A DNA stretch of 64,000 nt from Chlamydiota bacterium (GTDB lineage: Bacteria; Chlamydiota; Chlamydiia; Chlamydiales; Rhabdochlamydiaceae): positions 20,537 to 84,536 of the forward strand of contig JAKEHU010000006.1 in NCBI GenBank assembly GCA_022614855.1, written 5' to 3'. Each line of letters begins with the position of its first letter. Position 1 is the stretch's first letter. A model generated the notes under the pieces. It saw only the letters and a list, made by a program, of their open reading frames with translations, made no database searches and had not been told where the DNA came from. Positions 14,189 through 47,859 of this stretch are shown here, piece by piece. The translations under genes were made by a program, and so were the position numbers.

Positions 14189-15265
14189 TTATGCGCTTAT
14201 GTGCAAGGAACGGAGATCTGTTTTTTTCTTATGAAGTACTGCTATGATTTCCTGATAGACCTCTTCTGCTGTGATTTTTTTCATGCATCGAAAATCAATT
14301 GGACAGGTTCTTTGATAACAAGGCGAACACTCTACATGTTTGTGGATTACTTTTCCTGTACGATAAGGGCCTGTGACAAGTTCATTTGTAGAACCAAATA
14401 AGGCAATAATGGGCGTTCCAAGAGCATCCGCAATATGCATAGGGCCACTGTCATTTGTTAAAAGAACGCCGCATTGGCTGATGAGTGCAGCAAGTTCTCG
14501 CAGTGAAGTCAAGCCAGCTACATTGATGACACGAGAAGATAATCCCTGGCAAATTTCCTTGACAAGAGCTGTTGTTGGTTGATCTCCAAAATAAATGATA
14601 AAAATATTGGGATCAACAAGTAGCCTTTCTGTGACTTCGCGAAATCTCTCCGGAAGCCAACATTTTGCTGATCCATAAGTAGCTCCAGGATTGATTCCGA
14701 CAAGAAGACTACTGCTGGTAACCCCATGCTGTTTTAAAAGCGATTGCGCTTCCGATACTTCTCTTTTTGACAAAAATAACCTAGGAACCGCACCTGACAT
14801 GGAAATTCCAAGGGGTTCTAATAACCGTTTGTAGGTAACAACTAAATGTTGTCGATCAATTTCATCCGGAAGAAGAACAGGTTGGTTGAGCAAAAATCTT
14901 CTCCCATTACAATCATAGCCAAGGCGGTTTTTTACCTTCCCCTGCCAAAACCACCAGGCAGATGAAAAAGAATGGGTGAGCAAAATTCCCAAATCATATT
15001 TGCCATGGCGCAATTTTTCTATGATGTTTTTCTTATCGCTGCGGCGGGAAAAGCTGCTGCCTTTGCTAAAGCAAAAAAGTTCATCAATTTCGGGATCTTC
15101 TTTAAGCAAATCGCACACAGGCGTGCGACACATTGCGGTAATAGTTGCATCTGGATAGGCCTTTCTCAAATCGGTGAGTACCGGGGTTGCCATGACCATA
15201 TCCCCGATCCAATTTGGCATGCGGACAATGATATTTCTAAAAATCATTCCTTCTAGCGATGGCAT
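14189..15265 (-). CDS. ADP-heptose:LPS heptosyltransferase (GT9, WaaF/RfaF-like)
   Basis: The motifs are IIVRMPNWIGDMVMATPVL and NDSGPMHIADALGTPIIALFGST. Met7 at 15247 is an alternative start. Confidence 0.8.
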   Translation of the reverse strand: MPSLEGMIFRNIIVRMPNWIGDMVMATPVLTDLRKAYPDATITAMCRTPVCDLLKEDPEIDELFCFSKGSSFSRRSDKKNIIEKLRHGKYDLGILLTHSFSSAWWFWQGKVKNRLGYDCNGRRFLLNQPVLLPDEIDRQHLVVTYKRLLEPLGISMSGAVPRLFLSKREVSEAQSLLKQHGVTSSSLLVGINPGATYGSAKCWLPERFREVTERLLVDPNIFIIYFGDQPTTALVKEICQGLSSRVINVAGLTSLRELAALISQCGVLLTNDSGPMHIADALGTPIIALFGSTNELVTGPYRTGKVIHKHVECSPCYQRTCPIDFRCMKKITAEEVYQEIIAVLHKKKTDLRSLHISA

Positions 15266-15290
15266 GAACCTATCCCAAAACTAGATTTTA
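15266..15290. repeat. Solo terminal-repeat remnant of the 161-bp MITE family GAACCTATCC
   Basis: catGAACCTATCCcaaaactagatttta matches catGAACCTATCCgcaaattctaaaa at the ends of the elements at 20689 and 46899. It abuts the ATG at 15263-15265. Confidence 0.65.
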
Positions 15291-19773: not shown

Positions 19774-20688
19774 TTACAAAGGGGAGAGGGCTCTGCCAAG
19801 CGATTCACCCATTTTGCCAAGGACCTCCATTCTTTTTTGCGATGCCTCTAAAAGATCCTGGTCAAACTGAATGCGAAAAGGTTCAAAAAGAAGGATGATG
19901 CAAGATCCTCCAAAGGAAAAATATCCCTTTTCATCTCCCTTAGCGTAGTGTTCTTCTGGAATGTAGGTCTGATGAATCGATCCCACATAAGTAGCGCCGA
20001 TTTCAATGAAAAGAACCGGACCAAAATTTTTTGTTTGAAGTTGTGTGACCACCCTTTTGTTTTCCGTCAAAATGTGAATATTTTTGCAAAGTGCAATGGG
20101 ATTTACAGAAAAAAGAGCGCCATTTATGGCTTTTCCATTTCCGGGAACGCAATTGCAGGGAAAATGAAATCGATGATAATCGACAGGAGCTAGCCTTGCA
20201 ATCACCATGGACCCATGCAGATATTTGTGTGCAATCGTCTCATTTTTAATCAACTCTTCTAGAGAAAATTTCTTTCCTTTTACAATAAATCCATCGCTTC
20301 TTTGAACCTCAGGAAATACCAGATACCTTCCGTCCGCCGGTAGGATTGCTACATCATTGCCATTGGTAATTGACCTTGCAGAAGGTTTTAATTTTCGAAT
20401 GAAAAAATCATTAAACGAAGAAAAGGAAGAAACAGGGTCTAAAAATTCCGTTGTATCAATTTGAAAACGGCGGATAAATGGGCCAATTTTGTATCTGCTC
20501 CATTTGCTCTTTTGAAATTTTCCATACATTTTAGAAAAAAGCGAAATGCGTGAAATAAGTCCCAAAAAAAGGAGGGAAAAAATCCAGGAAATGGGATTAT
20601 TGCCATAAAGAAGATTAAGAAAAAATTTGCCATAAACTCTTTCTACTTCTACTTTTTTGTTCTGCCGATTAAGATAGCGAATTTCCAT
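19774..20688 (-). CDS. psd: Phosphatidylserine decarboxylase proenzyme
   Basis: The N-terminus RYLNRQNKKVEVERV is typical of chlamydial Psd as I recall it. Other motifs are FNDFFIRKLKP, LAPVDYHRFHFP and GYFSFGGS (cleavage site). Confidence 0.9.
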   Translation of the reverse strand: MEIRYLNRQNKKVEVERVYGKFFLNLLYGNNPISWIFSLLFLGLISRISLFSKMYGKFQKSKWSRYKIGPFIRRFQIDTTEFLDPVSSFSSFNDFFIRKLKPSARSITNGNDVAILPADGRYLVFPEVQRSDGFIVKGKKFSLEELIKNETIAHKYLHGSMVIARLAPVDYHRFHFPCNCVPGNGKAINGALFSVNPIALCKNIHILTENKRVVTQLQTKNFGPVLFIEIGATYVGSIHQTYIPEEHYAKGDEKGYFSFGGSCIILLFEPFRIQFDQDLLEASQKRMEVLGKMGESLGRALSPL

Positions 20689-20849
20689 GAACCTATCCGC
20701 AAATTCTAAAAATTTGATTTTTGTAAGATTTTTCCATCATATTTTTATGCCACTTTGAAGGACATACTTGCAAAGTCAAGCCGAGAAGTGGCATAAAAAT
20801 ATGACGAAAAAGATACGAAAAGCAGGTTTTAGAATTTGCGGATAGGTTC
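20689..20849. mobile_element. MITE-like palindromic element, family GAACCTATCC, full copy A (161 bp)
   Basis: The ~25-bp terminal inverted repeats are GAACCTATCCGCAAATTCTAAAA / TTTTAGAATTTGCGGATAGGTTC. It is highly similar by eye to the reverse complement of 46899-47059. It starts immediately after the psd start codon. Confidence 0.9.
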
Positions 20850-20923
20850 ATGTGTTAATTCAATTGAACCGAATCAGCATAATTCTTTCAAATATTCTAT
20901 TTAGTAAGGAAATATTTTAAAAA

Positions 20924-20952
20924 TTGAGAAGTTCCAAAAAATAGGTTATAAT
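20924..20952 (+). promoter_or_regulatory. Sigma-70/66-like promoter candidate for secA (TTGAGA-17-TATAAT)
   Basis: The -35 box is at 20924-20929 and the -10 box at 20947-20952. AGGA lies 4-7 nt before the ATG at 20970. Confidence 0.45.
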
Positions 20953-40531: not shown

Positions 40532-41782
40532 ATGCCTACAAAACTATTTGCAATAAAGATTGTAAAAACACTTGCACGAGCAGGACACATTGTCTACTTT
40601 GCAGGAGGCTGGGTAAGAGATTTTCTCATGCAACATCCATCCGATGATATCGATATTGCAACAAGTGCATCTACAGATGAAGTACAAAAACTCTTTCCAA
40701 AAACAATTCCTGTCGGCGTTTCTTTTGGCATCGTCATTGTTGTGCAGAATGGCCATCAATTTGAAGTAGCAACATTTAGAAAGGATAGAGGCTATGTAGA
40801 TGGAAGAAGACCTACCGGAATCGAACCTGCTACTCCTGAAGAAGATGCCCTTCGGCGCGATTTTACGATAAATGGAATGTTTTATGATCCGCTCAATGAG
40901 AAATTATATGATTACGTTGGAGGAGAAGCGGATATCAAAAAAAAGATCATCCGAGCAATTGGAAATCCGCATGAAAGGTTTGGTGAAGATAGGCTTCGCA
41001 TGATGCGGGCAGTGCGCTACTCAACCAGATTTAATTTCCCTATTGAAAGTGAAACTTTGCAAGCAATTCTTATCCATGCGAAAGAGCTTTTTCCTTCTGT
41101 AGCCATGGAAAGGGTTTGGCAAGAGTTTAAAAAAATGTCTCAATTTGCACATTTTGATAGAGGTTTAGCCACTCTCCATAAGCTGCAACTTTTGTCTACA
41201 ATTTTTCCAGAGCTTGCTAATGTCTCTTTAGAAGAAGTTGAAAAGAGGGTACGTTTTATGAGACAATTTCCAAAAAATACCCCTACTTTTGTAGAAGTTT
41301 TAGAGTTATTTCCCGACCATTCCTTCGAACAAATTATTCAGCTCTGCGACTATCTCAAGCTATCCAAAAAAGAAAAAGCATTTGCTCAGTTTTATTACCA
41401 CTCGCAAAATCTTCTCAACATGCCTAAATCCTGGCTGGATAAATTAGAAAAGGTGGAGTGGGCCCATTTTTATGCAAATCACTACTCCGATCTCTGTCTG
41501 CAAGTGCATGCGGCAAGAAAAGAAGCTGAGGAAAGAAGAGAATTTATCGATCATCATACAAGACAAAGAGAGTTGTTGAAAGAGCCAATTTTACGAATTC
41601 AATCAGCTAATCCCATTGTTAAAGCAGACCATTTGATGGAAGAGGGGATTAAACCCGGAAAAAATCTGGGAAAATTGCTCAAAGAAGCGGAGAGAATCTC
41701 TGTGAATGAACAGTTAGAAGATAGAAAAAAGATCATTGAAAAATTAAAAAAAACTCCACTATGGCAAGATGAACGAAGCTGA
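40532..41782 (+). CDS. CCA-adding enzyme / poly(A) polymerase family tRNA nucleotidyltransferase
   Basis: YFAGGWVRDFLM..DDIDIAT, RRDFTINGMFYD and EDRLRMMRAVRY. Confidence 0.85.
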   Translation: MPTKLFAIKIVKTLARAGHIVYFAGGWVRDFLMQHPSDDIDIATSASTDEVQKLFPKTIPVGVSFGIVIVVQNGHQFEVATFRKDRGYVDGRRPTGIEPATPEEDALRRDFTINGMFYDPLNEKLYDYVGGEADIKKKIIRAIGNPHERFGEDRLRMMRAVRYSTRFNFPIESETLQAILIHAKELFPSVAMERVWQEFKKMSQFAHFDRGLATLHKLQLLSTIFPELANVSLEEVEKRVRFMRQFPKNTPTFVEVLELFPDHSFEQIIQLCDYLKLSKKEKAFAQFYYHSQNLLNMPKSWLDKLEKVEWAHFYANHYSDLCLQVHAARKEAEERREFIDHHTRQRELLKEPILRIQSANPIVKADHLMEEGIKPGKNLGKLLKEAERISVNEQLEDRKKIIEKLKKTPLWQDERS

Positions 41783-42641
41783 ATCCCCTCCTTTTATCAA
41801 TGGAGTTCTTCTCATTATCTTTGCCTGGGTTTTCTTCACTGTAATGATTGCAATTTCTCGATATGTAAGTCCTTTGACTTCCATTCCAATTGTACTTCTC
41901 TTTCAAAATGGAATCAGTTTGCTTTTCATTCTTCCCTGGATGATCGAAAAAGGAAAAACAAGTTTTCACACTCCAAAATACCATCTTCTCATTCTAAGGA
42001 CGGTAGCCGGTTATTTAAACTTCACATTCATCTTTCTTGCAGTACAAAGAACATCACTAGTCAACACACTTTTGCTCAGCAATAGCGCCCCGATTTTCAT
42101 CCCTTTGATCATCTGGATTTGGCGGCGCATTGCAGTCGGCTACAAACTTTGGCTTGGAATTATCATAGGATTTATCGGAATTGGGCTGATTTTAAAACCG
42201 GATATTGATTTCATGAATACTGGGGTTCTTTTTGCCCTTGGATCTGCAATTTCTTTTTCCATCTCTATGATTGCGCAGAGAAGATTGATTAAAACAGAAC
42301 CCAAATACACGATTCTATTTTACTATTTTCTAGCAGGAACGCTCATCAGCTTCCCCTTTGCCATTTACACATGGAACATTCCCTTAACAATATTGCCTCT
42401 TTTAATTTTAATAGGTGTGCTGTCTGTGATTGGACAACTAGCATTTCTACAAGCCCTCCAATTTGGGAAGCCCTCTGCTTTAAGTCCTTTCAACTACATA
42501 TCAGTTGTATATGCAGCTATCATAGAATGGATCATTTGGAACCAATTTCCCGATCTTTTCTCGATCCTTGGCATCATTCTCATTTCCGTAGGAGGGATTC
42601 TTACAATGATTTATGAGAATAAACCTATCCGCAAATTCTAA
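41769..42641 (+). CDS. EamA/DMT-family transporter (10 TM)
   Basis: The protein has a two-fold hydrophobic repeat architecture. The last six codons and the stop (KPIRKF*) are encoded by a MITE terminal repeat. Confidence 0.65.
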   Translation: MNEAESPPFINGVLLIIFAWVFFTVMIAISRYVSPLTSIPIVLLFQNGISLLFILPWMIEKGKTSFHTPKYHLLILRTVAGYLNFTFIFLAVQRTSLVNTLLLSNSAPIFIPLIIWIWRRIAVGYKLWLGIIIGFIGIGLILKPDIDFMNTGVLFALGSAISFSISMIAQRRLIKTEPKYTILFYYFLAGTLISFPFAIYTWNIPLTILPLLILIGVLSVIGQLAFLQALQFGKPSALSPFNYISVVYAAIIEWIIWNQFPDLFSILGIILISVGGILTMIYENKPIRKF

Positions 42642-42697
42642 AACTTGCTTTTCGTATCTTTTTCGTCATATTTTCATGCCATTTCTTGGCCTACTTA
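42622..42697. mobile_element. MITE family GAACCTATCC, half copy B (left arm only)
   Basis: AACCTATCCGCAAATTCTAAAACTTGCTTTTCGTATCTTTTTCGTCATATTTTCATGCCATTTCTTGGCCTACTTA is near-identical (one mismatch seen) to 46900-46975. It then diverges. Confidence 0.85.
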
Positions 42698-42703
42698 AAT
42701 GGT

Positions 42704-45098: not shown

Positions 45099-46898
45099 TC
45101 ATAGATTTAGATTAATGATGAGAAGTGTGATGTCATCTTCTTGGTCTAGTCCAGAAGAAAAATTTTGCACCTCGTGGATGATTATATTCACAAGGTCTTG
45201 TGATTTTTTACTTTGTGCGTGTTTGATCAATTCTTTCAATCGATCTATGCCAAAGGTCTCTTTTTCTCGATTTCTAGCTTCAATAATTCCATCCGTATAA
45301 AGAATGAGAAAATCTCCTTTTCGAAGTGTCATTTCTTGAATGGAAAGATGGTCGAGTTCCATTACTCCCAATGCAATACCATCTCCTCTTAACTGGTGCA
45401 TCGTTCCATCTGACCTACGCAAAATTGCCGGCAAATGTCCTGAATTATGATAATAGAGTTTTTTTTGTCTTCGATCAAAAAGCCCTACCCAGGCTGTTAC
45501 AAAATTATGTGAACCGACCGTATCGAGGTACAATAAATTATTTGTCTCTAAAAGAATTCTGTCCAAACTATGTTTTTCCTTGGCTAAACTTCTGAGCGTG
45601 CTTCTCACCGAAAGAGAAAAAAGAGATGCACCGATTCCCTTTCCCGATCCATCTGCAATAGAAAAAAGAAGAGTATTGTCATCTGGCGCAAACAGATCAT
45701 AAAAATCTCCTGCAACTGTTTTTGCCGGAATGAATTTTGTTCCAATATCTATTCCAGGAATTTGAGGAATTTCTTTGGGAAAAAGAGTTTTTTGAATTTC
45801 ATGGCCAATTTTTAATTCATTTTCTAAAAGTTCTCTTGAAATTTTTTCACTTTTTGCTGTTTCCATTTGCGTTAAGAGGTCTTCAATCATCTGATTAAAT
45901 CCCCTTCCTAAAACATTGATCTCAAATCCCATCTTTTCCTTTTCATACCTCGCATTCAAATCTCCATGTTGTACTTTCTCCATAACAGAAAATAGTTGTT
46001 TCAAGGGTCTGCCCATTTTTATGGTCATGATGCAAGCAGTTCCACCTCCTATGAAAAGTAGAATGATAAATAGACTGGAAATGGGATAAAGAAAGTGGTT
46101 TACCGCAAAAAGATCGATTCCCAAATGAGAAAGATTTGCCAAAAGAGAAAATGAAGCGTCTTCAATGGGAATTTCAATGGCTAACCGACTTTCTCGATTT
46201 GTAAAAACATCCCAAATTGAAAGGGAAAACATCCACTTGTTTAACTCATTAGCATGAAAAATCTCCATTTTTTCTCTTTCAAATTGTGGCTTGGTGGTAA
46301 GCACAATTTGGCCAGATGGATCGACCAAAGAAAGGTTAAAATCGCCTAAAACATCGCCGAAAGCTGCAATATTTTCTAACCAACTTTGCCCAGCAGTGAT
46401 AAAAGCTAGACATTTTTTTTTCGTTTTATCTGTTTTTAAAAGAACAAGCTCAGTTGAGATAAAAGAGAGTTCACGAGAAATAAAAACGAGCGTGCCTCTT
46501 TCGGAAGCTAAAGAAAGCTCTTCAGAAAAAAAAGTTTTTCCTATTAACGATGGTTCGCTGCCATTTTTACAAATCCATTTGCCCTCTTCCAAAGAAAAGG
46601 AAAAAAGACCGCTTAATTTTAACTTCTGAGCAAGAACCTCAAAAGAGACGGCTCCATTTTCAATCAAATTTGCATCGAGAGATCTGAGTTCAATCCATTG
46701 ATTGATCAGGTGCGCATGTGCTTTAGCAAAAGAGGAAAGTTCAAAAAAAAGTGCACGCATTCTTGTTTGATAATCTCGATGCCACAAAACGATGCTATGA
46801 ACCACTAAAGGGACAATGATAAATGCAACACAGATAAGCGCGACTCGAAGTCCTAGCGAGCCGACCAGATGTCGAAGGGCAATTCTTTTTCTTTCCAT
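45099..46898 (-). CDS. rsbU: RsbU-like sensor PP2C phosphatase (periplasmic domain + HAMP + SpoIIE/PP2C)
   Basis: Two TM segments flank a ~250-aa extracytoplasmic region. A HAMP segment (MGRPLKQLFSVMEKVQHGDLNARY) is followed by PP2C motifs (VAGDFYD, IADGSGKG, LYTDGIIEA). Confidence 0.85.
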   Translation of the reverse strand: MERKRIALRHLVGSLGLRVALICVAFIIVPLVVHSIVLWHRDYQTRMRALFFELSSFAKAHAHLINQWIELRSLDANLIENGAVSFEVLAQKLKLSGLFSFSLEEGKWICKNGSEPSLIGKTFFSEELSLASERGTLVFISRELSFISTELVLLKTDKTKKKCLAFITAGQSWLENIAAFGDVLGDFNLSLVDPSGQIVLTTKPQFEREKMEIFHANELNKWMFSLSIWDVFTNRESRLAIEIPIEDASFSLLANLSHLGIDLFAVNHFLYPISSLFIILLFIGGGTACIMTIKMGRPLKQLFSVMEKVQHGDLNARYEKEKMGFEINVLGRGFNQMIEDLLTQMETAKSEKISRELLENELKIGHEIQKTLFPKEIPQIPGIDIGTKFIPAKTVAGDFYDLFAPDDNTLLFSIADGSGKGIGASLFSLSVRSTLRSLAKEKHSLDRILLETNNLLYLDTVGSHNFVTAWVGLFDRRQKKLYYHNSGHLPAILRRSDGTMHQLRGDGIALGVMELDHLSIQEMTLRKGDFLILYTDGIIEARNREKETFGIDRLKELIKHAQSKKSQDLVNIIIHEVQNFSSGLDQEDDITLLIINLNL

Positions 46899-47059
46899 GA
46901 ACCTATCCGCAAATTCTAAAACTTGCTTTTCGTATCTTTTTCGTCATATTTTCATGCCATTTCTTGTCCTACTTATATAAGTATGTCCTTCGAAGTGGCA
47001 TGAAAATCTGATGAAAAAATCTTACAAAAATCAAACTTCTAGAATTTGCGGATAGGTTC
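46899..47059. mobile_element. MITE-like palindromic element, family GAACCTATCC, full copy C (161 bp)
   Basis: It has the same terminal repeats as copy A. It fills almost the entire divergent rsbU/trmH intergenic region and starts immediately after the rsbU start codon. Confidence 0.9.
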
Positions 47060-47082
47060 AACCTTGCCACTGATGTTATATT

Positions 47083-47859
47083 ATGAGATATTATTTCCGC
47101 ATGGTAGCAAAAGAAATTAGCAGTTTACAACACCCAATCGTAAAACATCTCGTCAATTTGCGAACAAATCGAAAATATCGTGAGGAAAAAGAAGGTCTTT
47201 TACTTCTCGGAGATAAAATGATCCTCGAAGTAAAAAAACCAATTAAAACTCTTTTAATTACCATGGGAAGCCCCATCCCTAGTCATCTTAATTTTGAAAA
47301 AGCTTATCTCATTACAGAGGAAATGTTAAAAAAAATCAGTGGAATGCAATCTGTTGAAACCCTTGCTGCTGAGGTCTCTTTTCCTACCAAGGCAAATTTG
47401 AATCATAAAAAACTACTCCTTGGTCTTGATAACATTAGCGATCCAGGAAATATGGGAACCATGTTTAGATCTGCTTTAGCTTTGGGATGGGATGGAATTT
47501 TCCTTAGCGAAGATTCAGTAGATCCTTTCAACGACAAAGCTCTTCGCGCCGCCAAAGGAGCTTCTCTTATTCTTCCTTTTTCTAGAGGAAATGAATTGGA
47601 TTTTTACCAATTAGTCGAAAAAAATAATCTTCACGGTTACATTGCCGACTCCTCAGGCGACTTGATTGAAAATATCTCTTTTAAATTCCCTCTTATCTTG
47701 ATCTTAGGAAATGAAGCACGAGGAGTAACCCAATTTCATAAAAAAGAATTTCCAAAAATTGCAATTCCTATGCAAGGAAGGGCCGAATCTTTAAATGTAG
47801 CAACTGCAGCTGCAATTTTAATGCATTACATTAAATCGAGGATTCATGGCAAATCATGA
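47083..47859 (+). CDS. TrmH/SpoU-family RNA 2'-O-methyltransferase
   Basis: LDNISDPGNMGTMFRSA, LILGNEARGV and ESLNVATAAAI. The ATG at 47101 is an alternative start. Confidence 0.85.
   Translation: MRYYFRMVAKEISSLQHPIVKHLVNLRTNRKYREEKEGLLLLGDKMILEVKKPIKTLLITMGSPIPSHLNFEKAYLITEEMLKKISGMQSVETLAAEVSFPTKANLNHKKLLLGLDNISDPGNMGTMFRSALALGWDGIFLSEDSVDPFNDKALRAAKGASLILPFSRGNELDFYQLVEKNNLHGYIADSSGDLIENISFKFPLILILGNEARGVTQFHKKEFPKIAIPMQGRAESLNVATAAAILMHYIKSRIHGKS

Follow-up and report, generated by a model that had tools for sequence, protein, structure and literature searches.

The window analyzed here, 64,000 nucleotides of a Chlamydiota bacterium of the Rhabdochlamydiaceae (GenBank assembly GCA_022614855.1, contig JAKEHU010000006.1, positions 20,537 to 84,536 of the forward strand), carries two full copies, A and B, of a 161-bp palindromic repeat that directly adjoin the start codons of genes (Table 1). 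Judged by its sequence, the repeat is a MITE (miniature inverted-repeat transposable element): it has terminal inverted repeats (TIRs) and a 2-bp target-site duplication, it is small and lacks a transposase gene, and it occurs in many dispersed copies. It belongs to a superfamily of non-autonomous transposable elements sharing the tip GAACCTATCCGCAAATT. We have little doubt that this family is real and that its duplication, its polarity, and its association with start codons are genuine. With distinctly less assurance, we favor an account in which insertion at a start codon would be tolerated via translational coupling, the element bringing its own reading frame that delivers ribosomes to the gene.

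Copies A and B are near-perfect palindromes. When the plus strand of copy A is aligned with the minus strand of copy B, 146 bases out of 160 agree (91%), compared with 79.5% when both plus strands are aligned, and the two copies therefore lie in opposite orientation, in agreement with the original prediction made for this DNA. Its junctions were likewise confirmed: the left end of copy A directly adjoins the ATG of psd (phosphatidylserine decarboxylase), and that of copy B the ATG of an RsbU-like gene. The plus-strand RNA of copy A, antisense to psd, folds with a predicted energy of −78.5 kcal/mol (z = −16 versus shuffled sequences), and the minus-strand RNA, which runs in the psd direction, with −72.5 kcal/mol. 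A search of the window with the 18-mer tip GAACCTATCCGCAAATTC gave five matches at up to three mismatches, versus 0.06 expected. The fifth of these is a half copy that the original prediction had overlooked, together with the AT target-site duplication at copy A, the 52-codon leader open reading frame (ORF), and the polarity of the element. The solo tip reported in front of a heptosyltransferase gene is real but degenerate: the sequence at 15266, GAACCTATCCCAAAAC, has four mismatches to the 18-mer, yet over GGGATAGGTTC-ATG the match is perfect, ending with the gene's ATG at 15265. This remnant sits in a 37-nt spacer 3′ of a leucine-rich repeat gene.

Further members of the family were collected by an exact tip scan of one genome per species and then by searching metagenomes for pairs of tips, GAACCTATCCG-N125-155-CGGATAGGTTC. 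The tip was found in the Chlamydiota metagenome-assembled genomes (MAGs) JABDDY01, Waddliaceae JBAUVX01, JAGROB01, Ca. Sacchlamyda, JAAKFC01, and CAZLDZ01, where the interiors of the copies are too divergent for BLAST, yet the length is repeatedly 161 bp. A further 110 loci came from the paired-tip search, and removal of duplicates left 121 copies, which form 40 clusters by interior sequence and have the shared tip GAACCTATCCG at both ends; copy length ranges from 105 to 184 bp, and one MAG (JABDDY01) holds at least 15 copies. A long hairpin fold was predicted in 40/40 clusters. No Rfam family was matched at or above its gathering score, the window giving only a tRNA, and a permissive Rfam search of the element returned nothing but sub-threshold matches to generic hairpins (plant miRNA precursors).

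The flanking dinucleotides are identical, as direct repeats, in 85 of the 121 copies, compared with 41 expected. AT is the commonest duplication (59 copies, versus 4 for TA), and AA, TT, CT, GT, CA, and AG were also found. When the flanking dinucleotides are non-palindromic, 22 pairs are direct and one is inverted, which identifies a 2-bp target-site duplication rather than an extension of the TIR. Copy B, flanked by AT and AA, has an imperfect duplication. Duplications and copy number together argue for mobility. No autonomous partner came to light: among ~220 loci, no inverted pair of tips 0.3–6 kb apart encloses a transposase, and no long ORF is repeated. The transposase hunt at locus L064 and at Chloroflexi loci was equally negative, and one viral-contig scan yielded a chance match only. 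The IS30 and IS630 families and the ISL2 and IS427 groups of IS5, which make 2-bp duplications, are candidates for such a partner.

To relate the copies to genes, ends with at least 150 nt of flank were counted. An end was taken to abut a gene start if ATG, GTG, or TTG at offset 0 opened at least 80 codons, and a leader was called open if it had an NTG start and ended either with a TAG four nucleotides before the gene (TAG+4) or as ATGA. In this census, run on chlamydial MAGs and metagenomes, 25 of 34 open-leader ends abut a gene start, versus 5 of 174 closed-leader ends (Fisher odds ratio 94, p = 5e-20), and genes are absent from the closed ends of all open copies. The suggestion that start-codon junctions exceed chance in the window is thus borne out by a pattern that generalizes to many chlamydial genomes. 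Even the most generous null, in which the target is strictly ATG, all genic insertions are lethal, all intergenic ones are neutral, and the gene map is that of this window only, predicts 22% at start codons, versus 74% observed (p = 2e-10). The excess may reflect actual targeting of start regions, damage done by hairpins that go untranslated at other sites, or longer persistence at start codons, where an imprecise deletion would destroy the gene.

Open gene-abutting copies occur in nine clusters with unrelated interiors. When 10 of the abutted ORFs were searched against Pfam, the domain models started within residues 4–59 in 8/10, and ClpB was full length; the other domains include CoxI, GrpB-GNAT, an ABC-3 permease with an iron-repressor domain, VKOR, EamA, GT2, and a PLOD-type glycosyltransferase. 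Domains so close to the N terminus indicate that the abutted starts are true N termini. When the empty sites are reconstructed, an in-frame stop lies 0–22 codons upstream and the ATG is in most cases the first start codon to follow it; these sites show no target consensus beyond ATG. Cluster 2 (147 bp, closed in both directions) serves as a natural control: an AT/AT duplication flanks 7/8 of its copies and five of these seven have ATG on one side, but 0/16 ends lie at gene starts. The idea that the element targets sequence at start codons is therefore supported insofar as a (C)AT(G) preference can be seen in cluster 2 as well, whose copies lie away from gene starts.

The polarity of the element lies in its reading frame. 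The start codon of the leader consists of the upstream duplicated AT and the first G of the element, and in copy A the far junction reads TAG-GTTC-ATG(psd). Every 161-bp copy of the first set has one direction open for exactly 52 codons (MNLSAN... to ...ICG or ...IYG), with the TAG in the far tip, and the opposite direction closed after 9–27 codons. In copies whose length is a multiple of three (150, 162, 165, and 108 bp), the frame ends ...NLRIGS-TGA and overlaps the gene ATG as ATGA; loci L029, L109, L202, and L205 are of this kind. Both the 161-bp length and the 52-codon TAG+4 frame recur across families with unrelated interiors, and imperfect upstream duplicates are GT or TT, whereby the leader start codon is retained.

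The encoded peptides share nothing between clusters except their tip-encoded ends, and no homologue of the leader peptide was found in a collection of 5.8 billion proteins, which makes it improbable that the leader encodes a functional small protein. Indels of a single base shift related copies of clusters 5 and 9 from one mode to the other, TAG+4 or ATGA, so that the peptide is wholly changed and the frame stays open; in one such case (L154/L202) the two copies are the same locus in two strains. Four lineages within cluster 0, with a mutual identity of 64–73%, are all open and gene-abutting, and simulation gave a frame of this cluster a chance of ~0.2 of staying open after 40 random substitutions. 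These comparisons suggest that the openness of the frame, not the peptide, is what is kept.

The gene starts themselves appear to predate the insertions. The N terminus of the window Psd (MEIRY...) agrees with that of its orthologues, two of which (L220 and L221, ~70% identity) have the same ATGGAAATTCGC start and no element in front of it. This makes the psd ATG ancestral, with the element placed exactly 5′ of it. On this evidence we read the start codons as ancestral rather than donated by the element, and the AT as duplicated target DNA. The original prediction, in which the tip carries a Shine-Dalgarno (SD)-like sequence plus ATG and thereby donates translation starts, holds for the SD mimicry, since the far tip pairs with the anti-SD at −4.8 kcal/mol compared with a window median of −2.25, but fails for the ATG, which is shared with element-free orthologues. 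The closest relative of the window genome shows 71% identity at Psd. An exact look-up returned no record for the window Psd, although NCBI has an identical protein, P0001, labeled "MAG: Chlamydiae bacterium".

The sequences show that duplication of AT at an ATG leaves the gene start intact on one side of the insertion, and that the copied AT forms, with the first G of the element, a new ATG behind the original ribosome-binding region of the gene. In the sense orientation, this ATG opens a frame of ~52 codons across the whole hairpin, ending as TAG+4 or ATGA. From this we propose the following mechanism. Ribosomes starting at the captured site would melt the hairpin that otherwise buries the SD-like GGAUAGG of the gene, would terminate beside its ATG, and would either re-initiate there or free the ATG for new ribosomes. 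A sense insertion at a start codon would then cost little and be tolerated by selection, and it would persist because the gene would suffer from any imprecise deletion there; misoriented copies and those at other sites would be lost or decay. In the predicted transcript fold the far tip is indeed base-paired. Translational coupling is known to require an overlap or a very short spacer and to be nearly abolished at ~20 nt (PMC10666635), which fits the census: leaders ending at +4 or −4 sit at genes, and those ending at least 16 nt earlier do not. Copy A at psd has the canonical arrangement: it lies in the sense orientation, and its 52-codon leader starts with ATG and ends as TAG+4. Two remnants, one at the heptosyltransferase gene and one near polA, look like decayed insertions of which only the tip is left. 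The latter (L064:3308-3348, in the JABDDY01 MAG) is a 35-nt remnant tip (GAACCTATCCGGAAATGC...) located 1 nt from the polA ATG, and it resembles the heptosyltransferase remnant of the window.

Several observations weigh against coupling as a full account. Five closed or antisense copies lie at gene starts (window copy B, L147, L150, L160, and L196), and hence a full read-through leader is not indispensable. Copy B is, with L147 and L150, one of three antisense exceptions in cluster 0: its sense-type frame, toward trmH, is broken at codon 28, and its rsbU-sense hairpin is the more stable one (−74.8 versus −69.3 kcal/mol), so that rsbU would have to be expressed by means of the SD-like tip, or through a leader that covers the 5′ arm and thereby gives partial unmasking. 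The hairpin stem starts at +3 of the leader start codon, which should hinder initiation unless ribosomes load during transcription. Census copies are not all independent, some being orthologues or coming from one MAG, and the null model draws on a single gene map. No filled/empty polymorphism was seen at strain level, empty psd sites being found only in the ~70%-identity orthologues. The claim that open clusters exceed chance was dropped, as the probability of an open frame after dinucleotide shuffling of the interior is 0.05–0.58 per cluster; the case therefore rests on association and polarity.

The hairpins of the two strands differ in stability. RNA of the sense (open) direction forms the weaker hairpin in 33/35 copies and 10/10 clusters, by a mean of 13.8 kcal/mol (Wilcoxon p = 3e-10), compared with an asymmetry of only 2.5–4.6 kcal/mol in the large closed families. 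This gap implies that mismatches in the sense RNA are G·U pairs in the antisense RNA. The asymmetry could be due to selection for a translatable sense transcript or, equally, could be a by-product of stop removal via T-to-C changes. Orthologous insertions (L194/L208 and L154/L202) stand at the same gene and have locus-specific variants in common, which places the insertion before the strain splits, with the frame kept open since. The elements at these loci are 98.8–99.4% identical, and their flanks 82–93%; as proof of selection this hyper-conservation is weakened by coding windows in the same alignments, some of which are equally conserved (96–100%).

Could the element simply donate a ribosome-binding site (RBS) or a promoter? 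The tip GGATAGGTTC would then supply an SD at the right distance, the 3′ arm might hold a promoter that points outward, and the gene would be translated directly, leaving the leader ORF without a role. The strong pairing of the tip with the anti-SD speaks for this, as do the tip-only remnants that persist at the heptosyltransferase gene and near polA, the five closed or antisense copies that are still at gene starts, and Anaerolineae hairpins of 40 nt that place the same tip 5–6 nt upstream of ATGs. Since the two tips are identical, however, such donation leaves unexplained why genes lie at the open end (25) and never at the closed end of open copies, and it also leaves the strand asymmetry of the hairpin unaccounted for. 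In a full-length transcript the SD-like tip would be buried in a stem of ~−72 kcal/mol. Furthermore, no sigma-70-like consensus site was found within copies A or B, the candidates lying outside, although chlamydial promoters may differ from the consensus used. We consider donation of this kind unlikely, though it is the most credible of the alternatives. A bolder scheme combines homing with regulation: the element would home to translation starts, for example by recognizing SD-ATG regions that resemble its own tip plus flank, and hairpin and leader would act as a shared translation-dependent switch. As the element spread, dozens of otherwise unconnected genes (psd, clpB, coxA, ytgC, and glycosyltransferase genes among them) would be joined in one post-transcriptional regulon in Chlamydiae and, via related tips, in Chloroflexi. 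We give this scheme somewhat less credence still.

Target preference could by itself place copies at start codons if the transposase favored (C)ATG-like sites, the copies were neutral, and the open frame and polarity were inherited from a few master copies. AT duplications do dominate even in cluster 2, away from gene starts, with ATG on one side of most AT-flanked copies, and open frames are not improbable by chance. Against this, a strict-ATG target accounts for at most ~22% at start codons, far from the 74% observed, and cluster 2 targets AT, is closed, and has no end at a gene start; moreover, the polarity is common to 9–10 clusters with unrelated interiors, and frame-switching indels leave the frame open. 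We regard this explanation as improbable. The same low standing applies to a domesticated regulatory module, in which hairpin and leader would form a translation-dependent switch responding to ribosome supply, temperature, or RNase III and kept for its benefit as a common control. The conservation of elements at orthologous loci above that of their flanks, the long hairpins kept in every cluster, and the stress and envelope functions among the abutted genes (ClpB, RsbU-like, psd, glycosyltransferases) would suit it. But equally conserved coding windows occur in the same alignments, the abutted genes have no evident common function, and neither interiors nor peptides are conserved between clusters. 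Tolerance via coupling therefore remains the reading that we prefer.

Among known systems, the closest parallel is the mycobacterial interspersed repetitive unit (MIRU; Supply et al. 1997). The MIRU has a short ORF co-oriented with the neighboring gene, whose end is coupled to the start of that gene by a −4 overlap (PMC12548453, PMC3184786), and MIRUs are described as acting at start codons and are read as insertions of minimal impact on expression (PMC12548453). Both the MIRU and the element are small repeats at start codons or between cistrons with a short co-oriented ORF ending at the gene start, and the ATGA-mode copies share the −4 overlap of the MIRU. MIRUs differ in being 40–100 bp long, often in tandem arrays, found in Actinobacteria, and not long palindromes. 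The element is a single 161-bp hairpin with TIRs of 20–23 bp and a 2-bp duplication, present in Chlamydiota with relatives in other phyla, and no tandem arrays were seen among its copies. It captures its start via the duplication, mostly leaves a +4 spacer after a tip-encoded TAG, and has no sequence similarity to the MIRU. By analogy, the element probably works like a MIRU without being one, through a convergent strategy.

Correia elements (CREE or NEMIS) of Neisseria are co-transcribed MITEs whose RNA hairpins affect the expression of neighboring genes, with a TA duplication, IHF sites, and outward promoters; they are not known to adjoin start codons or to contain a coupling ORF with polarity. 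The element differs from Correia elements in its duplication, which is mostly AT rather than TA, in its unrelated tip, and in its Chlamydiota host. Both are MITEs of ~100–160 bp with TIRs and a 2-bp duplication that lie beside genes; general MITE features are treated in PMC3184786. REP2 of Neisseria and upstream repeats of Borrelia lie immediately 5′ of ORFs and supply translation signals (PMC3184786). The element has an SD-like tip, but REP2 carries a promoter, an RBS, and the ATG itself and is not a TIR element, whereas here the ATG is ancestral and outside the element, and no promoter-like site was found inside. Rickettsia palindromic elements are selfish palindromic repeats that are tolerated because they are translatable (PMC3184786), as is proposed here for the element, and each of the two is carried by obligate intracellular bacteria. 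The rickettsial ones lie in frame within coding sequence and become part of the protein, whereas the element would be a separate upstream cistron. Synthetic bicistronic designs also use a short upstream ORF ending at the gene start, by which the effect of local RNA structure is removed (PMC12548453); they are engineered and non-mobile, whereas here the arrangement is apparently a natural property of a transposable element. A literature search, incomplete in its coverage, found no described chlamydial MITE and no start-codon MITE.

If the proposed mechanism is true, a selfish element occupies the start codon, among the most sensitive sites in a gene, without silencing it, by bringing its own ribosome-delivering frame. 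The strategy put forward for mycobacterial MIRUs would then have arisen independently a second time, here as a classical hairpin MITE and with a statistically much clearer census. The element would be a natural analogue of synthetic bicistronic expression designs, and it offers a cheap, concrete test case for translational coupling through an RNA hairpin of ~−70 kcal/mol. Gene callers and start-site predictors will meet such leaders in chlamydial MAGs. The 161-bp repeats also break short-read assemblies: in the short-read Waddliaceae MAG JBAUVX01, contigs L043, L091, L095, and L108 end inside a copy or within a few bases of one, from which it follows that copy numbers in MAGs are underestimated. 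Contig L001 of the same MAG has the same element end, not located at the contig end.

The superfamily is wider than Chlamydiota. Short hairpins in Chloroflexi MAGs (L021:2912-2960, L063:4946-4995, L012:4170-4265, L002:682, and L107:2584) are bounded by the identical 17-nt tip, (A/G)AACCTATCCGCAAATTC, which is thus conserved across phyla. In Anaerolineae these hairpins are ~40 nt long and sit between co-directional genes, with the next ATG 5–6 nt downstream; those of Caldilineaceae measure ~90 bp. Some metagenome clusters have flanks of 57–70% GC, and it is these high-GC flanks and the Chloroflexi tips that extend the superfamily beyond the phylum. The 17-mer also matches within conserved protein-coding genes of Pedobacter and cyanobacteria, and these matches were set aside as chance.

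The original prediction also placed promoters for the neighboring genes inside the element, which our search does not support: consensus promoter-like sites were seen only outside copies A and B. Besides the candidate psd promoter in Table 1, sigma-70-like candidates were found for secA at 20924-20952, outside copy A, and for trmH at 47064-47092, just outside copy B; the number of promoter-like sites is not above that in shuffled sequence. Use of the upstream psd candidate would give an mRNA running through copy A, which is plausible. For the SpoU/TrmH gene, the −10 hexamer of the only promoter-like site ends at 47092, 3′ of the first ATG (47083) and ~8 nt before the ATG at 47101. Translation of this gene may begin at 47101, on an mRNA with little or no leader.

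Table 1. Coordinates of element copies, leader frames, and adjoining features in the window
Feature	Position	Strand	Remarks
MITE copy A, 161 bp	20689..20849	minus (sense/open-frame direction, toward psd)	perfect TIR of 23 bp
MITE copy B, 161 bp	46899..47059	plus (sense-type direction, toward trmH)	perfect TIR of 20 bp; antisense-type end at the ATG of the RsbU-like gene
Half copy, 78 bp (sense 5′ arm)	42621..42698	plus	96% identity to the left half of copy B; first base G→A
Remnant distal tip	15266..15283	minus	GTTTTGGGATAGGTTC on that strand; directly 5′ of the ATG (15265-15263) of the GT9 heptosyltransferase gene
AT, upstream copy of the 2-bp target-site duplication, copy A	20850..20851		with the first G of the element (20849, minus), the ATG of the leader ORF
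AT, downstream copy of the duplication, copy A	20687..20688		first two bases of the psd start codon
Leader ORF, 52 codons, MNLSANSKTC...NQIFRICG	20693..20851	minus	distal tip GGATAGGTTC holds the stop TAG (20695-20693), separated from the psd ATG by 4 nt
Truncated leader in copy B, 30 codons	46969..47061	minus (rsbU strand)	TTG start (flanking TT plus G of the tip); TAG 70 nt before the element end
psd (phosphatidylserine decarboxylase)	19774..20688	minus	ATG directly adjoins left base 20689 of copy A
RsbU-like gene, HAMP and PP2C (SpoIIE)	45099..46898	minus	ATG directly adjoins left base 46899 of copy B
EamA gene	41769-42641		3′ end inside the half copy
Candidate psd promoter, TTTAAA-16-TAGAAT	20894..20921	minus	outside and upstream of copy A; consensus match only

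Some further observations concern sites with element-like sequence. The pattern CGGATAGGTTCATG has 14 matches in the window at up to three mismatches, versus 3.55 expected, of which eight lie outside the four recognized element sites (2501, 5000, 15191, 38739, 54688, 58671, 62246, and 62547). Three of these tip-like matches (38739, 58671, and 62547) were compared with the ORF map, and none abuts a gene start. In the psd leader region, just upstream of the captured start of copy A, there is a palindrome of 10–12 bp, TTCAATTGAA, ending ...GAACC (20856-20872), which may be an older element relic or chance.

The EamA-family gene of the window has no stop of its own: it enters the half copy for six codons (KPIRKF) and ends at a TAA of the element. 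In Ca. Sacchlamyda (L037), the TAA of an EamA homologue immediately precedes a full copy, and that copy abuts a VKOR gene. A gene-leader-gene chain was found in Waddliaceae (L109:3403-5612), where a 108-bp derivative separates an ABC ATPase gene, at its TAA stop, from the start ATG of a gene for an ABC-3 permease, in the ATGA coupling arrangement. The permease encoded downstream is fused to an iron-dependent repressor domain, resembling YtgC-YtgR.

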